Shown here: piece after piece, positions 9,121 to 48,851 of the stretch
Layout: each line of letters starts with the position of its first letter
Position numbering within the stretch: position 1 is the first letter of the stretch
DNA from: Patellaria atrata CBS 101060
Lineage: Eukaryota
DNA: 64,000 nt
Direction: 5' to 3'
Assembly (NCBI GenBank): GCA_010093705.1
Contig: MU006097.1
Coordinates: 383,905-447,904, forward strand
Made by a program: the position numbers and the translations under genes
The notes under the pieces: generated by a model
Told to the model about the DNA's origin: nothing
Databases searched by the model: none
What the model saw: the letters and a program-made list of their open reading frames with translations, nothing else

Positions 9121-9598
9121 TCCTCTGGATGAGACACTCAGTCCACCCTCCCCAGCATTATCTCAAACGAGTGCTTCACGGAGCCGAATGGCGTCTTTAC
9201 GGTTTTGATCAATATCCATCTCAGCAAATGGTTTATACTGTTCAAAAGTATGTCTCTTGAAGTGGTGTTTATGGCTCATGTCTATTCTATTTAGTCTTAC
9301 GGTGTCCCAATATCAGGGGTAGAATAGTGATGATACCAATTCAATTTTATGATTATGCAGAATGAGTGTTATCTAAATATATACAGGGGATGTACTTTTA
9401 TAGTAACATCCGGCTTTGATTTCTGCTGAAGCATTTGAATGATACTCACTTCTAGTACCCTTGAGGGACTACTCCGTATTGAATGTTGAAGGAGTTGGGG
9501 CAAGTTTTGCCGAGACGAGACTCCAAGTTCTATTCTAACCAGCTTCACGAAATTTTTGAGAGCTTGCATCCATGACAGCAAAATCATGGAAATTAACG

Positions 9599-10643
9599 AT
9601 GCTAAACGATGACAATGCATCTGATGGAGTTTATCAATCCGATTCCCAATCTGCATCTGATCGTGCAGCTCGCAGCAGCATATTCTCCGTACCTAGCCCG
9701 ATAAAATGGCTGTTCAATAGCGTTCCTCTCATAACTTATGGCGCAAATGAACTACCTTTGCGCGTACCTCGACGAAACGATCAGAATGCACTATACATAT
9801 TTACTACCCAACATGGAGCTACGCGAGGGGATCCATCCTTCAATCCCAGCTGCCTGAGATGGCAGGTGAGTCGCACCTTACCTCAATTCTCAATGTATTA
9901 TCCTAGGGAGGATACTAACCTGGAATGCGTCTACAGGCTTACCTCAAGTTTTGTCATATTGAACATACCACGGTCGTATCAAACAATCATGCATCTCCAA
10001 GCGGTGCTCTTCCTTTCCTTCTCCCCTCCGTTGCCAAAGGCACCGATAGAGCGGTGCCAGTCCCGTCAAGCAAGCTACAAAGATGGGTCGCACAGAACAC
10101 CGCCAACGTAGTAGACGAGGCCTATGACTTGCGTTACGATGCATATCTGTCTCTTATTGATCATCGGATACGTCGGGCCTGGGTAAGAAGCTCTTCATAA
10201 TGCGAGAGAATGTAAGAAAACTAACAGAAGGGCCACTGAAGTTGTATACCCTCTATCTTACCTCGAACTTTCACACTATTGTTGTCCCACTCTATGTTGA
10301 TCCCAGCTCAACAAATCCTCTCGTACGGATGGCAATCGCCCACGAACTTCGATCCGCGGCCGAAACGGAGTTGTTGAAACATTCGGTGGTCATTGACGCG
10401 GAGCTCATATACCAACAAGCCGAAGAAGCACTTATAGCACTCGAAAGTGTACTCGGCAACTCAGAATGGTTCTTCGGGGCTAGAGCCCCTAGACTCTTTG
10501 ATGCAGCTATATTTGCATACACACATTTGCTACTAGACGAAAAGTTAGGGAATGGGTGGGCGGAAGTGAGGATGAGTAGAATAGTTCGCAAACACGGCAG
10601 ACTTGTACATCATAGGAACGCGATCTTAGACATGTATTTTTAG
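9599..10643 (+). CDS. SAM35: Mitochondrial SAM complex subunit Sam35 / metaxin-like GST-fold protein
   Basis: Introns 9866-9936 and 10183-10241. Motifs PSFNPSCLRWQAYLKF, SNNHASPSGALPFL, WFFGARAPRLFDAAIFAYTHLL. Start may be 9572. Confidence 0.82.
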
Positions 10644-35805: not shown

Positions 35806-36772
35806 ACTTTTCCTTATCAGTGCTGTGGTTGATTGATGTTCGGGAGGGAGATCGAAGCGACAAACTTCCTAGGTACAATAGTCGACCCGCTGGTATCTGA
35901 TTGAGAAAGAACATGGGTCTCATATATGTGCAGCGCAGTATACGCCGCTTGATAATTTCTGAGTGGCGTTGTACATCTTATGGTTGGCGGAAGGGTAACT
36001 TTCTCGGATCTTCTCCTACCTTTCTTCTTCTTCAATTTTCTGCTAAATGAGATGAGAATGAATTTTATCGACAAAGTATTTCCACCCCAACTTCGAAGTC
36101 ACTTTCTGTGCTTCTCAATCGCTTGGTGCCCGATGGGCAGCAAATAGCATCGATAGCGTTGTTCTTTTGAGGGAGACAACCAGCTTCTCAGCTAACTCGA
36201 GTAGGTCTGATCCGGATATCTAGTCGAGCTATGACGAGTACCGTGTCGACCAAAGGTTCTACCACGTTCCTAGATCGAATACTTAACTTCCAGACAAGCA
36301 GTTGAAATCCTCCATCTGCTCCACGGCTTCTTGCTCTTCCTCTATCTCCGTTCAAAAGACAATTGCGAACTCATATCCCATCAAACGTGTTTCAGCTATC
36401 TACCGATTGTTGATAATGCGGGGATCGTGAGATTTCTCTACAGCAATTATGGAAATACTTCCAACTCGTGATAACGACCGAAGCCTACGATTAGCTCCTA
36501 CGTAGTACCGGTGCCACCTCTTCGGTTCTTAGGCAAACATACTAACCGCCGCCACCATCAACGTGGACACTGCGAACGTCTGTAATACTATCGTGAACTT
36601 TTCATATTGTTGTCGGGAAATTGGCTATATAATGATGGGGTGGTCATGCTCTCTTCCTGATCCGCATTTCTAATATCATTATCACTTCATAAGCTTCGAA
36701 ATTCGGACTATAGTCGTGATACGTTTTCAACTTCAATCTCATTTCTCTTTTGATAACTTTTCATTCAGTATC

Positions 36773-38800
36773 ATGGCATATCCCCAAAGAGATAATTGGT
36801 ACCCTCATTCTAGCCTTGTGAGGCTCCCCTCATCTCGCCATTACCGTCGTCCTCACGCCCAGTTGTACCAGACTCGTTCCCCATCTCCCCGTCCTGGTTG
36901 GAATATTGATTATGCCACCGCATTTCTGATCTCTCATCTTGAAACGACGGCCGAGAAGTGCAGCAAAGAACTGTATTTCTGGCGACACTCCTGTACTCCA
37001 CATAGCCTTCCAGATTGCCTTATCAATCTAGACCTCATCCTCTTTGATTCCAAACTCTGGGACCACATTAGCGTCATTCTGGAGCACTTGGGCCGTGAGA
37101 TCTCGGCATGTCTTGTCAAAGTTGCTGGTCCGGGGTTTCATGGTACACCGCTGGAAATTCAGATAAACGGGGATATGCACGTCCCCGGAGATCGAGATTC
37201 TCTGCTCGCCAGTTTATTGCATCAGATGATCCATGCTTACTTCCTTATTGTATGTCCGAGTGCTTATAAGAATGACGGGATGGATACAAGATTAGCACAC
37301 GGCTTCCATTTCGGTGCCGTAATGTACAAAATCAAAGATCTTGCAACCCCGAATAGCAGAAGACCGATGCTACCACTGGATTTCGGTCACCATCTCGGCC
37401 ACCATCTCCCTCACCACAGTCGCGCGAGCAGTGTAAGGGGATACCGTAGAACCAGCAACTCAACCGTTCGAGGTCAGCTTCAATTGCAGAGCTTCGCCTA
37501 CGCTGAATACGCTTACGGACGTCCTAAGCATCGTCAAAAGTATCGTGTAGCTGCCGAGTCAGATGCTTGCCATCGCGCTCAGCCAACCATTGACCGCGCT
37601 CAGATCGAGAAATTCTACGAGGAGAACTGTAAACCGCTCCTGGATGCCAGCGAGGTCGGACGTAGCACTTCCCTTTTCAAGCTTGAGGACAACGAACTCG
37701 TAGAGATTGGCCGCATGCATGATAAAGTCGGACGACCAGCGGAATATGTCGAACTAGTATTTGAGGGCAAGCCGGTCAGGATACCCCGTCCCGAACTAGA
37801 GAGATTCGGGAGTCTGAAAGAACTCTTCGGCGAAGGCAAGAGGGAACTCAACATACCAGAAGGCACGAGTTTCCACACATTCTCGCGACTGTGCGAATTC
37901 ATCACCAAGACAACATACGAGCCAGATATCCAAGAGACGCAAGTAGAGGACCCGGGAGACAACTACGGTCCTCCAGCCATTGTCACTCAAGACGACAAAG
38001 ATGACGAGAAAAGCGCCACAAGCGACGACACCAAAGACGAAACACCCTACCTCCGAATCGACACGCGGGTTTTCCTCCTCGCCTCCCAAATCGGGTTCTC
38101 CGAGATCCAATCTCACGCCCTCGACAGGATGAACAAACAGCACGTCTCCCGCGAAGACCCCGTCGAAGTGCTCAAGGAACTCTACGCCTCCGACGAACCC
38201 CACGAAACTCTCCGCCGCTGGTGCAGGAAATGGCTAGCCCGGATCCGCCCCCAAGCCGTCGAGGACAAGAGGAACGACCACCGCGCCTCCTGCTCCTGCG
38301 GCTCCGACCCCCCCACCGCCGAAACCTCCGTCCTCGAAACCTCCAACCTGGGCCTCCTCTCCACGTACCCCTCTTTCCGCACCTTGCGCGACGGCTCCGC
38401 TCGACTGGCCGAGGACGTCACACGGGTTGAGACTGAGTTCGAAAAATGCGCTAGGGAAGAGGAGAGGCTGCGCTGGGTGAGGGAGGAGAGGGAATGGCGC
38501 TTCGATGGTCGGGAATTTCCCTATGACCCGTACTTTGCCACCCTCTGTCCTCATTCCGCGGCGCAGCTTTACGTCTCCCCACATCTTCCGCCCCACGCGC
38601 ATACGCCGCGGAATCCGCATACGTGCGGGTATAACTCGCGTACGCATACGCCGGGGTCGTGTTCGTGCGAGGAGGGGAAGGGGAAGGGGAGGCCGGGTGC
38701 TATGGATGGGCCGTATTTGAGTGGGGGGGAGTGGTTTTGGAGGGGCAGGGATGGGGGGTTGAGGGTTTGGGATCAGGTGAGGGGGTGGGTTGGGGAGTAG
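36773..38800 (+). CDS. SprT-like zincin domain (HQMIH variant) fused to BTB/POZ-like domain
   Basis: Intronless ORF. LLHQMIHAYFL...HGFHFGAVMYKI matches the SprT HExxH..H layout. EYVELVFEG..FSRLCEFITKTTY..RVFLLASQIGFSEIQSHALDRM resembles fungal BTB. Domain calls are by eye. Confidence 0.7.
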   Translation: MAYPQRDNWYPHSSLVRLPSSRHYRRPHAQLYQTRSPSPRPGWNIDYATAFLISHLETTAEKCSKELYFWRHSCTPHSLPDCLINLDLILFDSKLWDHISVILEHLGREISACLVKVAGPGFHGTPLEIQINGDMHVPGDRDSLLASLLHQMIHAYFLIVCPSAYKNDGMDTRLAHGFHFGAVMYKIKDLATPNSRRPMLPLDFGHHLGHHLPHHSRASSVRGYRRTSNSTVRGQLQLQSFAYAEYAYGRPKHRQKYRVAAESDACHRAQPTIDRAQIEKFYEENCKPLLDASEVGRSTSLFKLEDNELVEIGRMHDKVGRPAEYVELVFEGKPVRIPRPELERFGSLKELFGEGKRELNIPEGTSFHTFSRLCEFITKTTYEPDIQETQVEDPGDNYGPPAIVTQDDKDDEKSATSDDTKDETPYLRIDTRVFLLASQIGFSEIQSHALDRMNKQHVSREDPVEVLKELYASDEPHETLRRWCRKWLARIRPQAVEDKRNDHRASCSCGSDPPTAETSVLETSNLGLLSTYPSFRTLRDGSARLAEDVTRVETEFEKCAREEERLRWVREEREWRFDGREFPYDPYFATLCPHSAAQLYVSPHLPPHAHTPRNPHTCGYNSRTHTPGSCSCEEGKGKGRPGAMDGPYLSGGEWFWRGRDGGLRVWDQVRGWVGE

Positions 38801-38991
38801 GGCTGTTCTTGATTGGGTATGGGGGGTATGGGGGGTATGGGAGAGTGGGAGAGGGGCTGTCGAGGGTTATTGGGGGGTGGGGTTGGGTTAGGGTTTTGTG
38901 GTATGTTGTAGGCCATTCCACCTAAGGTGGGAGAAGTAGATTATGCTAAGATTACCTGTTTCTTCTGAGTAGGATGAGATGGGGTAGGTTA

Positions 38992-39832: not shown

Positions 39833-40944
39833 TTAGAGCCGGCTTCGAGGGCCACGGGATACTTGGGGTATCCATTCCTCCTGTTGGGGTTGCCAGTTGT
39901 GTTTCTCGTATACCTGTGTACGTTTGTCAGTACGCTCTACTTATAGATTCAAAATAGGCTTATTGAGCTCTTCCATACCTCTGTAAACTTCTCGCCCTTA
40001 TGAGGGCCCGCCTGTTCCCTTTGAACGGTATATTCCACATTGACTGGGCCCTGCTGACCCCTTTGGCCCGTGTAATTGCCGTATTGCGCGTGCTGAGGTG
40101 GTGGTTGCGCATGAGCTCCATATTCGCCGTAATTGCCAACCGGCTCTTGCCTCCCTTGTTGATTCTGATATTCGTAGTGTCTGACGTTCCCTTCGACGCC
40201 GCCGTATTCCGCAGCCGGTGCGGCAACCGGCACCTGTCTCTCCCGTCGGTACTCCGTTTCCTTGTACGTCGCATTACCGCCTCGATAGTCTCCCGCTGGG
40301 ACCTGTTTCTCCCTGCGAAACTCATACTCATTGTACCTCGCATCCGCGCCTCCCCCTGGATACTCCTCCTTAAACCTCACATGAGCCTGCTGCTGCGGCG
40401 CATGTTGCTTATCCTTCGCCTCAACTGTAAACTGCTCATACCGATTCCCCTGCCCCTTCTCATCCTGACAACACCTCAACGGCTCCAACCCCCCCAACAA
40501 CGCCAACACCTGCAACAAGCTCTGATGACACGTCGCCAACTCCATCCGTCGATGTACCAACTTCTCATGCTCATCCAAAACCCAAATGACACGATTCTTA
40601 ACCCCAACATGCTTCCCCCGATCCGTATCCTTGCACACTCGTTTCGTATATCTATTGATCTCGTACAGCGCCTCATGCACGCCCGCCATTGTGTCCCGGA
40701 TCCACTCCACCTTCTCCGGGTTTCCCGATAACGCGTACTTGACCTCCTTGACCCGCATTAGGCGCTCCGCTTCCTCCAGGTCGTCGCGCACCCGCGCCGC
40801 GAGCCGCGTGAAGACCGCGTTTTCTTCCGCCACGTCGTGCAGGCGTTTGAGTCGGATCAGCGCTTCGCCGGCTTTGTAGATGCTGCCGACGGCTCCGAGG
40901 GCGGCGCCGACGCCGAGCGCTTCGATGAGTTTGCTTTTGGCCAT
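39833..40944 (-). CDS. HeLo-like/STAND N-terminal helical-domain protein with G/N/Q/Y-rich pseudo-repeats and spliced C-terminal PTS1 (-SRL)
   Basis: Exon 40944-39979 (322 codons), intron 39978-39914 (GTATGG..CTGAC..CAG, phase 0), exon 39913-39833 = VYEKHNWQPQQEEWIPQVSRGPRSRL*. Hydrophobic Gly/Ala first helix (LIEALGVGAALGAVGSIY), amphipathic helices and NRVIWVL motif. Confidence 0.72.
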
Positions 40945-44400: not shown

Positions 44401-47285
44401 TTAGAATAGGCTCCACCCCTTTCTCTTTTCCCTCTCCCGTGTCTGCGCTGCTCTAGACGTATATCTCTTTTCTCTCTGCTCGAGTTGGCGTAATGCCTCC
44501 ATTTCCTTAAGCACGTGCTCAAGAAGTTCTTTCCTACGAACGACATCCAGATGGCGGCGGATCTTGGGGTCCTCTCGAGCGAAGCGGTCAACCTCACCCT
44601 GTGATAACCCGCGGCCTAATCTGGCATCAAGCTCACGGGGAAACTATTAACTATGAGTACGGATTCAATTCCTCGGGTATGTGATCCAACTTACGAGATA
44701 GAAGAACTTGGACAGCAGATCTGCTTCTAGGAAAAGATCCGCGGTCTCTGTGAGCTTATCTGCGACGGCATCCAGAAATACCTCCGGACAGTAATACTTG
44801 TTTTTCTTGGTTGCGCACTGTTTTGACTTGACTGCAAGCAATCGCATCTTGATGATATCTGCCCTATCACGTAGGAATACGGCATCCCGCCCTGTTTTGA
44901 AAGATAAGAGTCCGAACCGAGAGTTTTTTATTACAACTTACCTTTATCCAAGAGGGAAGCGCTAAAGCCTCCGGCACCTCCAGCACCATTTCCTTCTAGT
45001 ACGACTTGTCCACTGCGGACTCTGTCAATGAATCCCATGACGTCCCGTAATTTCTTCTTTCCGCCGACCGTACTCTCCACGCTCTTGATGGCTTCCTCGC
45101 ACGTCCGCAACTCCTCTTTCAATACAGTGGAGATATTGTCCCGGCCTTTGGCCCACTCCTTGTCATCCGGCTCAAACTTGAATTTATAGGGTTTAATGCA
45201 AATTTCAAGGTCATCGCTGACTTCATAGGACAAGTCTTTCAATATTGATGCCGAGGCATCAGTAATGGCCTGACGTGCGAAAGGATGAACTGCGAAAGTT
45301 GAGGTACTTATAAGACGATTAATGTGTGCTTGAATAGAATTTGCGACGACACTAGTTGCTAAGCGCCCAATGCCCAGTTTTGTCAGTGAAGAACTCGACG
45401 CATCGAGCTTTAGGTGCCATAGGGGATTCTCGGGGTCCGCTTTGGGTAAGTCGCTCAACGGATCTGATTCAGAGGGAGGCGGAGAGAGGTCAACGAATGG
45501 TTTGTTCCAATATCTCGAAGCCAATAAATTCAGAACTTGCTGATCAAGCTCATGTTTTATGATCTCCCGTACCTGGGGTCGTCCGAAATATTCTGTGAAT
45601 CCCTTAAAGGAGTGTTTGAACGCATCTAGACTTTCCGCCAGATATGACTCTGCACTTAATGGACGCTCATTGTATTGAACTTTGAATTCATAAGTGGTCT
45701 CCGCAAGATCGTGTTGTATGGCCTCGCTGGTCGATTTAAGGCTCGATGCCAGTGTTTGTTCCAATACAAGCATAAGCTTCTTCCTCAATGTAGTTGTACC
45801 CACGTCCAATTCTGACTGAGGTCCGAATTCCAGAGGATGTGATGAGAAGAAAGCATTTTCATTACGAATGATAGCGGAACTTATATTCCCACTACCGCGC
45901 CGGAACACATTATTTAATTGCTGGGGTGGTTTCGAAATAACCCCAACATAACCGAGCCGTAAAGCATACTTCTGGTCAGTAAGCAAATCCACCGCTCGTG
46001 CAGGCTCTACAAGGTCCATCTTGGTAATGACACCTATTGTACGCTCGCCTCTTGGATCGACCTTCCTGCTTGCCCTTAAAGCAGTAGAATTGGCTAGATC
46101 GACATCTGCCGCCGATATTGCAAGAACGATGTTAGGAGCTTGAATGTACTTATCACATAGTTCCGAAATCTTCTCCTTTAACTCAGGAGGTTGATCCCGT
46201 CCGACAACTTGGATGTACCCCGGTAAATCTATGAGTGATAGGTCTGGGACATTTGGAGAATAGATACGGAGTTGTATAGGATCATCGGAGACACATTCAG
46301 ACGCAGGTACAGCAAGATTCAGATCTGTTAAAGTTCTTTGTACCTGACTGAAATCTGTGACTTTGCCTAGACCTATAGCAGGAAATTCCGCGTACTCTGC
46401 CTGAGCATCTGGGGTGTTTATCAGAGTCAATTCGATCGGACGGCGTGTGACCATATTATGTCCCTTAGGTAGGAATTCATGTCCTACAATAGCCTCGAGA
46501 ACCGAGCTCTTGCCTGAGGACTGAGAACCAATAACGACAATCGAAGGTAATGTCAATGTTTCTGACTGTCCTACAGTCTGGAGTAAACTTCTTATCTCTA
46601 TCATTTTTTTCGTCAAGAGCATCATTTGATCATCTCTGGCAATCTTCTCTTCAGAACGGGGATCATCTTCAGGATTCTTATCGTAGCCAAAAGCTGCTCC
46701 AGTAGCACCTCCAACGGCAGCAGCAGCGCTTGCGCTTGATTGCTGGTGATTAGAAGAACCATCAGGACCAGAGGAGCCTTTCCCATTTCCTGACGATTCT
46801 TCCTTACCACCCAAGATTTTTCGTAGCCACTCCGGTAGCTCCGCATTATCTTTTGTCTTCTCAAATCCATTTTTAGTCTGGTGGAACACAGTATTCGCTG
46901 TATCAAATACAGATCCAGCTGTCGAAGCTATACCCTCTTTCGTGCGGTTAAAGATATCAAGAGCGTAATTACCAGCCTGAGTAGCTTGATTTTGCACGTA
47001 TACTAGCCCGGCAACCGCCGCCCCTCCCCCCAATGCACCTAGTGTAGCGAACTTTTGAAAGAGTTTTGGTATGACACGGGCAAATCCCGCTATTGATCTT
47101 ACGGCCACAGCATTATGAAGAGCGTTTGTACCAGCAGGCCATCGCTGCCGTCTTAAAAGCGGTGCTCCTGATGCTGCTCGTAATAAACCGCCAGCATTGG
47201 GGCTTGCGGTGTAGAGAGTTCGTCGTGACGTGGAGAGTCGTTGAGCGAGGGGCGAGGCTCGGGTGGCTATGAGCCTTCCACTCAT
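44401..47285 (-). CDS. MGM1: Mitochondrial dynamin-like GTPase Mgm1/Msp1 (OPA1 ortholog)
   Basis: Arg-rich presequence and TM; VVIGSQSSGKSSVLE, VTRRPIEL, DLPG, TKMD. Introns 44941-44892 and 44694-44644. Ends KGWSLF*. Confidence 0.96.
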
Positions 47286-47549
47286 CTTATATATCCCAGG
47301 TTACTATTATCTTCGACCATAGGTCCTTGTGATGAGGTTAAAGGATGTTAGGTTGTTAGAGGAGGGGGATCGTAGGTGGGACGGTAGCTACAAGGTGTTT
47401 GAAATATGATGTAGGGCAAATCTTGCCGCATCTTCACCGTGCCAAGGTACACTACAGTACACTGCAGTATCTCCCCTTAACAACAACTTATTTAATCTTT
47501 GCGCACGATCGGAACGTGTACTCAAAGCTCCTCAGCATGTATCTGAGAC
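47286..47549. promoter_or_regulatory. Probable bidirectional promoter between MGM1 and MDM10
   Basis: Only 264 bp separate the divergent start codons. Confidence 0.6.
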
Positions 47550-48851
47550 ATGCTGGGGTTTATGGATTATGTGCAACAAGCATTCTACGAAGCATCGCAC
47601 TGGAATCATGACAACAGCTATGGCGCTCTTACTGCGACAGCGAAAGGTACATAAAGCTCGAACTTTCAGTGTGAACGCTCTATTGATTTGTTCTAGCTCT
47701 CCTTGACTTCGAGACACCGCCTGGTCTTCGGTTGAACCTCTCTTCTCTCTCATCTCCTAATTTTGCTACGTCATATACTGTCGGAAGTGTCGGCGTAGTC
47801 GATGGATCATTATCCTACCTTTACTCTTCGCTCCCCTTGAAAACGGAATCAAAGAGCAGCGACATTGACTTATATCATGTTATACGGGGCTACCGTCATG
47901 CGCAAGACCTGCGCAGACCAGATGAACCTTGGTGGTGGGAAATATGGCACGAGGGAAAGCGTATAGACAGGCGAGGTACACTATTTAAGCAACTCTAATA
48001 GGTTACAATCACGATGTTGACCATGTACAGATACACTGCTATACGGGCGTCTCTTCTTACCGCGGTCAAGTCTCGAGGCTCTGTATCTCCGACGCATCTC
48101 TCCAACGAGACAACTCAAAGTGTCATGCGTGAGCGACTCTTCGCTCGTTAACGGTGGAACCATTCTTGCGCTACTGCAAAATGATTATGGCAAGTATAGT
48201 ACGGAATATTTATATAGTACCGATAGTGCTCTTTTTGGGTTCCGTGGACTATATAATTTTGGTCTCGATCCCCGTAAAGCTGCGAAACTTTCAACATCCT
48301 CAACCGCTGCCGAAAATATAGCGATAGAGCCAACATATGGGCGGTTCAGCGCTGGCGCTGAATTGTACTATGGTATACTCAATAAAAGCGGAGGAATGAG
48401 TACTGGGATAAGATTCACCACGCTCCCGCAACATACGGGCTTTCCGTACACCATGACTTTAACTGTAAATCCATTGATGGGCAATCTCTCAACATCCTAT
48501 GCTGTTAAAGCAGGCCGAAGTCTCGCTCTTTGCTCACGTTTCGACTTCAATGTCTACTCTTACGAGTCGGACCTTCAGATGGGATTGGAACTGTGGAGAC
48601 GACAACAACCTACTGGGACAGTAGATTGGGCTGCAAAAATGATCAGAGCAGATTGGAAGAAGCCATCTTTGCGTGCTGACGAAGACATAAGTGGAGTTTT
48701 GAAGGCAAGGGTCGATCAGAACTGGAACATCGGAATCCTGTGGGAAGGAAGAATAAAAGAACTGTTGTTCACGTTGGGAGCTAGTTTTGATTTGAGAAAA
48801 AGAGATAAAATTGTAAAAGGTGTAGGAGTCGAACTGCAATATTCGTCATGA
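47550..48851 (+). CDS. MDM10: Mitochondrial distribution and morphology protein Mdm10 (ERMES/SAM beta-barrel)
   Basis: [24 protein letters not shown]. Introns 47647-47696 and 47976-48030. Motifs [33 protein letters not shown] terminus. Confidence 0.94.

Follow-up and report, generated by a model that had tools for sequence, protein, structure and literature searches.

A C-terminal Ser-Arg-Leu tripeptide behind a small 3' intron suggests a peroxisomal address for a new family of Pezizomycotina proteins

The window analysed here, a stretch of 64,000 nucleotides (nt) from Patellaria atrata CBS 101060 (contig MU006097.1, positions 383,905 to 447,904 of the forward strand), carries on its minus strand what is, judging from the sequence, a real two-exon gene with an uncharacterised product of 348 amino acids (aa). 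The protein ends in Ser-Arg-Leu (SRL), a tripeptide that matches the consensus of the type 1 peroxisomal targeting signal (PTS1), and it belongs to a new family that has neither a Pfam model nor a named member. On balance, it is probably a peroxisomal protein, possibly a Woronin-body protein, imported by Pex5, with a head that would act at the organelle membrane and a tail that would serve as a flexible spacer. It is very probably not an amyloid effector of the HET-S type templated by a NOD-like receptor (NLR), the role for which the original prediction on this DNA had made it a candidate.

In the pathway that we infer, the protein would be made in the cytosol, where its SRL end, reached only after the splicing of the small 3' intron, would be bound by the PTS1 receptor Pex5. 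Import into peroxisomes would follow, possibly including those of the peroxisome-derived Woronin-body lineage. The head, a helical bundle perhaps very distantly of the HeLo/MLKL type, may then act on or at the organelle membrane, while the charged Tyr/Arg/Glu tail could either work as a flexible spacer or, being weakly beta-prone, take part in self-association. The plan of the family comprises a helix-bundle head, a fast-evolving, near-neutral polyampholyte tail with lineage-specific repeats, and a short conserved C-terminal signal.

The list of open reading frames (ORFs), with their translations, gave a minus-strand ORF of 331 aa (39949..40944, with the ATG at 40944-40942). Its best database match was P0002, a 348-aa hypothetical protein from the same strain, with 99% identity over 98% of the query, and the difference between the two was confined to the 3' end. 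There, the gene has an intron of 65 nt and a last exon of 26 codons (Table 1), both of which the original prediction missed; the span that it gave (39979..40944) is nevertheless real coding sequence, and the lower bound of that span is exactly the end of exon 1. Two sequence runs found for the locus were DNA-like and contained no joint across the 65-nt intron.

The PTS1 consensus is a free C-terminal (S/A/C)-(K/R/H)-(L/M). The spliced protein matches it through its -SRL end, and the same end is found in the deposited P0002. The C-terminal sequence is ..SRGPRSRL. In homologues, positions -4 to -7 are occupied by R, K, H or P; in plants, basic residues upstream of a PTS1 enhance targeting, according to an excerpt from one study (PMC9542071).

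Strict [SAC][KRH][LM] ends were observed in 11 of 152 relatives, eight of these being SRL, and their distribution was uneven: 10 of the 39 closest representatives had one, versus 1 of the 113 more distant sequences. From tail composition, 0.0015 such ends are expected per sequence, which gives 10/39 a nominal binomial P of 4e-20; owing to the relatedness of the sequences, this value should not be taken as a true probability. As modelled, the other 29 of the 39 closest representatives have no strict PTS1. Near-canonical ends (SRI, SKF, TKL, THL and SNL) also occurred among the relatives, often after W-P or P-R.

A metagenome search with alignment A4 returned only two short loci (L001 and L002), and a search with P0005 alone returned no relative. 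Locus L002 encodes an unannotated homologue that has a matching ..KF..E codon run with an intron behind it, and a last exon ending in HWPMDRSRL; the two other ORFs scanned on this locus matched no Pfam family. On L001, the model of P0016 (1130-1295) ends in ..GPAEV because it reads into a canonical intron (GTATGA..TGCTAAC..CAG); the contig is 1295 nt long, and the true stop of P0016 lies past its end. Because in this one case the model reads into a 3' intron, the count of 10 in 39 is probably an undercount. P0009 ends in ..PRASR, and P0012 and P0021 continue after ..SR; in these three homologues, too, mis-modelling of the 3' end may hide targeting signals. The mini-exon missed in the P. atrata gene illustrates how such signals can stay hidden in fungal gene models.

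In Neurospora, as stated in excerpts from one report, red fluorescent protein (RFP) fused to SRL marks the peroxisome matrix, and HEX reaches the precursors of Woronin bodies via a PTS1 and PEX5 (PMC2213590). Like HEX and other PTS1 matrix cargo of filamentous ascomycetes, the P. atrata protein has a C-terminal PTS1 of the SRL type, which is the type read by PEX5, and its family, going by the members with a named source, is limited to Pezizomycotina. Unlike HEX, it consists of a helical head and a disordered tail. In the literature searched, with most subscription journals outside its scope, no paper that connects a protein of this kind with peroxisomes came up. The conserved PTS1 gives a large unnamed family a concrete, testable cell-biological address.

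The head was modelled by AlphaFold2, on 133 aligned sequences, with a predicted local distance difference test (pLDDT) of 89.1 and a predicted template modelling score (pTM) of 0.74, bearing out the proposal of a helical domain of about 155 aa. The model contains long, antiparallel helices at residues 4-36, 38-63, 66-72, 76-108 and 115-153, and the near-invariant columns of the head alignment are F45, V52, D55, E58, R61, W121, H140 and L143. The first helix had been described as Gly/Ala-rich and hydrophobic. It is indeed rich in Gly and Ala, but its hydrophobicity is borderline: the best 19-residue Kyte-Doolittle mean is 1.34, under the usual transmembrane threshold, with 1.6 being reached in 13 of 37 close homologues.

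The domain is closed by an LEPLRCC motif, in which E154, P155, C158 and C159 are invariant in alignment A4. The LEPL(A/R)CC form, with its two adjacent cysteines, is kept in the PTS1 subfamily and apparently not in the distant paralogues viewed. The motif could be a site of lipidation, metal binding or disulfide formation.

The family is large. At least 200 representatives (clusters at 50% identity) matched the protein at E<=1e-3, mostly over the N-terminal head domain, and all members with a named source belong to Pezizomycotina: Rhizodiscina, Mytilinidion, Pseudovirgaria, Amniculicola, Delitschia, Microthyrium and Aulographum among the Dothideomycetes, Clonostachys among the Sordariomycetes and, for the paralogues, Cadophora among the Leotiomycetes. 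None of the 66 relatives scanned (E<=0.01) reached the own cut-off of any Pfam family; the sole match listed was GatC in P0066, at 18.5 bits versus a cut-off of 23.

Distant paralogues (among P0036-P0153), with lengths of 500-940 aa, retain the head and a long tail and have no PTS1 end. At the C-terminus they show conserved motifs of their own, namely ..K.MMDLLGSLE/..SIDT, RRRA.QDL..G, ARRM.LAYGSD and RRRAMMEAALGV. The presence of these other terminal motifs points to a broader plan in which head, spacer and terminal signal serve several destinations or partners.

That plan also agrees with an alternative that we consider unlikely yet worth weighing, in which the protein is an adaptor or tether, either cytosolic or anchored in a membrane. 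The Gly/Ala-rich helix, perhaps together with the CC (double-cysteine) motif, would anchor it, the disordered tail would act as a spacer and the C-terminal motif would recruit a partner; the PTS1 subfamily would then bind Pex5 or peroxisomes without full import, and the motifs of the paralogues would bind other partners. The borderline hydrophobic first helix, the conserved double cysteine at the end of the domain, and tails of 74-314 residues that are mostly modelled with low confidence would suit such a role, as would the distant paralogues. However, an SRL preceded by Pro and Arg is the textbook signal for import, and in Neurospora SRL suffices to bring RFP into peroxisomes, as far as the excerpted report goes (PMC2213590). 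Moreover, the hydrophobicity of the first helix is not of transmembrane grade, and no partner is known. We favour import into peroxisomes over this reading.

In the import model, the tail would be a flexible spacer, perhaps with a weak tendency to self-associate. Residues 156-348 contain 13% Q, 12% E, 11% G, 9% R and 8% Y; basic residues number 26 and acidic ones 27. The combined share of I, L, M, V, F and W in the tail is only 11%. As for the pseudo-repeats on which the original prediction had relied, the pair YNEYEFRREKQV / YKETEYRRERQV gave a BLOSUM62 score of 44, which was reached by none of 300 shuffles (mean 27.7, maximum 41), whereas the other units that had been listed scored 21-33, inside the shuffle range. 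Two copies are thus related beyond chance and the remaining ones are not. The good copies are internal, at residues 197-239 of 348, and the repeats lie 80-150 residues from the C-terminus.

The alternation of polar and hydrophobic residues, also claimed for these repeats, did not exceed chance (z = 1.0 for the tail and 0.16 for 29 homologous tails pooled); in the same pooled tails, adjacent hydrophobic pairs were depleted (z = -1.9). At the DNA level, a tandem-repeat finder detected no tandem repeat in the tail. The same program reported a 9-bp unit, CAACACCTC, present in 5.6 copies with 70% matches at 40469-40517 of the plus strand, outside the protein repeats; this run, which corresponds to about residues 143-159 at the end of the coding sequence of the helical domain, is due to codon and composition bias and is not a protein repeat.

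In the full-length AlphaFold2 model, pLDDT fell below 50 at residues 164-201, 245-251 and 269-345, and the strands drawn in the tail (187-192, 205-215, 227-240, 252-265 and 319-325) had a pLDDT of only about 54-60. The tail model of the ESM Atlas, itself of low confidence, was a beta-meander whose structural matches were beta-barrel proteins with template modelling (TM) scores of 0.36-0.47; the ESM Atlas gave no usable feature match for the tail. Both programs placed antiparallel strands of 11-14 residues across the charged repeats (40138-40356, residues 197-269), with low confidence. In these models, one face of the repeat strands would be mostly acidic and the other basic and aromatic. The arrangement may represent a single-layer sheet that is charged, or else an artefact.

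Among 29 close homologues, the tails (74-314 residues) were strong, almost neutral polyampholytes, with charged fractions of 0.26-0.51 and net charges of -0.12 to +0.04 per residue (17 of the 29 within +/-0.05). Between 11% and 32% of their residues were I, L, M, V, F or W. The repeat signal exceeded z = 5 in 12 of the 29. The repeats themselves differed in both sequence and period (6-54 residues), examples being RETVDFREKEVY, RVEEREVWVEH and YRREYEVQEEPR; the tails do not align and the repeat sequence is not conserved among these homologues. Composition is thus conserved and a motif is not, and the tail has the character of a disordered stretch where each lineage gains repeats of its own.

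A tail of this kind might still do more than separate the head from the signal. It is conceivable, though in our view rather improbable, that the protein is a self-assembling component of a peroxisomal core or condensate, with a beta-prone tail rich in Tyr, Arg, Glu, Gln and Gly that would assemble reversibly after import and a head that would oligomerise. The content of Tyr, Arg, Gln and Gly, the beta-meander drawn over the repeats by both AlphaFold2 and the ESM Atlas, the recurrence of lineage-specific repeats and the conserved PTS1 are all in line with this idea. Nonetheless, the strands have low pLDDT values, all structural matches of the ESM model have TM scores below 0.5, alternating hydrophobic patterns show no excess, and a strong polyampholyte whose net charge is close to zero may just remain disordered.

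The original prediction had described the head as HeLo-like. The protein of the window had no match to HeLo (PF14479) or HeLo-like (PF17111) at E<=10 in Pfam, and comparing its sequence with Pfam and with Protein Data Bank (PDB) chains produced nothing meaningful. Across the family, HeLo was the most recurrent weak match: 4 of 95 members had one at E<=10, with a best E of 0.025. When 66 members were scanned, HeLo was matched by five (P0036, P0041, P0051, P0064 and P0088) with E 0.025-0.085, at 13-15 bits versus a cut-off of 23.2, and the five sub-threshold alignments share the helix 3-4 half, at about positions 120-180 of the 205 of the HeLo profile. Only P0103 among these 66 matched MLKL_N (E 0.037).

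The nearest named clusters of the ESM Atlas carry PF17111 (10-26% of members) and SesA, with scores of 0.87-0.88, under the 0.9 bar. One homologue, P0006, bears the UniRef name 'Fungal N-terminal domain-containing protein'; despite this name, PF17111 was matched neither in P0006 nor in 13 other close relatives (Pfam, E<=10).

Foldseek found no match of the head model to PDB entries at E<=1e-3. The 50 matches listed by VIA-align were helical bundles of a generic kind; HET-S and MLKL chains were not among these 50, which does not rule them out. The generic antiparallel three- or four-helix bundles listed as similar were the FAT domain, the vinculin tail, the N-terminal domain of ApoE and the coiled-coil domain of plant CC-NLRs. 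Alignments A2 and A5, run as profiles against the PDB, gave only low-complexity or chance matches, none of them to a HET-S or MLKL chain. The leads for a HeLo-like head are thus the sub-threshold HeLo, MLKL_N and PF17111 matches, with no family threshold reached; we give distant HeLo kinship of the head roughly one chance in three.

If such kinship exists, the head might be a distant HeLo/MLKL-type membrane-disrupting module that the PTS1 sends to peroxisomes or Woronin bodies. It would serve as an executioner or gate, stored in the organelle or acting from the lumen on the peroxisomal membrane, with assembly controlled by the charged, beta-prone repeat tail and no NLR involved. This combination strikes us as quite improbable. 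A HeLo/MLKL-like head would nonetheless mean that a domain of the membrane-attack type is sent into an organelle and not to the plasma membrane, which would bear on the biology of peroxisomes and Woronin bodies and on the diversification of fungal cell-death modules. If the head is not HeLo/MLKL-like, the protein would still represent a new peroxisomal protein family.

The amyloid-signalling proposal makes more specific demands. Known effectors, as described in excerpts from two papers, have at the C-terminal end an amyloid motif some 20 residues long, present once or as 2-3 repeats, and the partner NLR, usually encoded next to the effector, bears a homologous N-terminal motif (PMC5485727, PMC9815663). 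The rungs of HET-s, in the excerpted description, have a hydrophobic core, Asn ladders and three salt bridges (PMC5485727). Like the HET-S/HELLP-type effectors, which have a HeLo (PF14479) or HeLo-like (PF17111) head, the P. atrata protein is all-helical from residue 1, with a hydrophobic helix rich in small residues, and it has a non-globular C-terminal region with short repeats; its family, too, is limited to filamentous fungi as far as sources are named. The sub-threshold HeLo, MLKL_N and PF17111 leads point in the same direction. Unlike these effectors, the family lies below every family threshold, the C-terminus is a PTS1, and the searches made found neither an NLR partner nor a fusion to NACHT or NB-ARC.

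The repeats differ from the known motifs as well, being internal, highly charged and not conserved. They lie at residues 197-239 of 348, and a separate last exon supplies the PRSRL end. At the aligned positions of the two good copies, the charges are alike (E/E, R/R, R/R, E/E and K/R), implying that stacking them as parallel rungs would be repulsive. A conserved motif with a hydrophobic core and complementary rung charges was thus not seen: the 29 tails differ, the charges are alike and aliphatic plus non-Tyr aromatic residues come to 11%.

No match to NACHT or NB-ARC was found in the 28 long ORFs of the 64-kb window, in agreement with the earlier observation that no cognate NLR is present there. 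A word-based search, which has low sensitivity, detected no protein of 610-2000 aa matching residues 190-330 at E<=1. The head was not fused to an NLR module in any of 66 relatives, nor in any of seven long relatives (745-1295 aa); unlike HeLo-like and SesA domains, it was therefore not seen as the N-terminus of an NLR.

The original idea, a HeLo-like pore-forming head kept inactive until an NLR motif templates the pseudo-repeats into amyloid, leading to membrane attack and cell death, draws on a Gly/Ala-rich first helix and bundle that resemble the HeLo plan, on weak HeLo matches on one region in 5 of 66 members (with MLKL_N in one, and HeLo in 4 of 95), on the nearest named ESM clusters with PF17111 and SesA, and on two repeat copies beyond chance with low-confidence strands predicted on them, but we regard it as very improbable, given a conserved PTS1 where known systems place the motif, non-conserved repeats with like charges aligned and few I, L, M, V, F or W residues, HeLo scores short of the cut-off, PDB profile searches that gave no HET-S or MLKL chain, the lack of NACHT or NB-ARC in the long ORFs of the 64 kb and, as weak evidence, that of a 610-2000-aa protein with the repeat. 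Amyloid signalling by this protein is accordingly unlikely.

Table 1. Features of the P. atrata gene and its product (positions are those of the window)
Feature	Position	Strand	Details and basis
Exon 1	39979..40944	-	322 codons; exon end read from sequence; P0002 match
Intron, 65 nt, phase 0	39914..39978	-	GTATGG donor, TACTGAC branch-like site, CAG acceptor
Exon 2, 26 codons plus stop, encodes VYEKHNWQPQQEEWIPQVSRGPRSRL	39833..39913	-	Translation identical to P0002 C-terminus
C-terminal tripeptide Ser-Arg-Leu (PTS1), preceded by Pro-Arg	39836..39844	-	Sequence and translation
N-terminal conserved helical domain, residues 1-155	40480..40944	-	AlphaFold2 and homologue matches
Gly/Ala-rich first-helix segment, residues 6-24, small-xxx-small spacing	40873..40929	-	Sequence, AlphaFold2, hydropathy
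LEPLRCC motif, closes the domain	40468..40488	-	Alignments; LEPLACC in close subfamily
Low-complexity tail within exon 1, residues 160-322	39979..40467	-	Rich in Q, E, G, R and Y; charged fraction 0.27, net charge near nil
Two clearly related repeat units, residues 197-239: GGGADARYNEYEFRREKQVP / GGNATYKETEYRRERQVP	40228..40356	-	Shuffle test, AlphaFold2 strands
Third, degenerate repeat unit, residues 248-269: GGVEGNVRHYEYQNQQGRQEPV	40138..40203	-	Score 28 versus copy 1, inside shuffle range

The window is fungal nuclear DNA, and the neighbours of the gene are ordinary, including a SprT-like protein, an Mgm1-type dynamin, Mdm10, a DnaJ protein, a Zn2Cys6 factor and others. The Mgm1-type dynamin (44931-47300, plus-strand neighbour Mdm10 beside it) is encoded on the minus strand and matched Dynamin_N at 4.8e-46 and LIS_MGM1 at 1e-22; Mdm10 lies at 48021-48851 (+; 7.3e-98), and both are 4-8 kb from the gene. 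A SAM35-like fragment was also seen in the window, at 9560-10111. These genes of mitochondrial dynamics (Mgm1-type, Mdm10 and SAM35-like) are probably unrelated to the gene studied.

Upstream, the ORF of the SprT-like neighbour (36674-38800, +) is 708 aa long from stop to stop, and its family match is weak (E 5e-5). Around its 3' region (about 38650-38930), the translation is very rich in Gly, Trp and Val in one frame and in Pro on the opposite strand, the underlying DNA being of low complexity and GC-rich.
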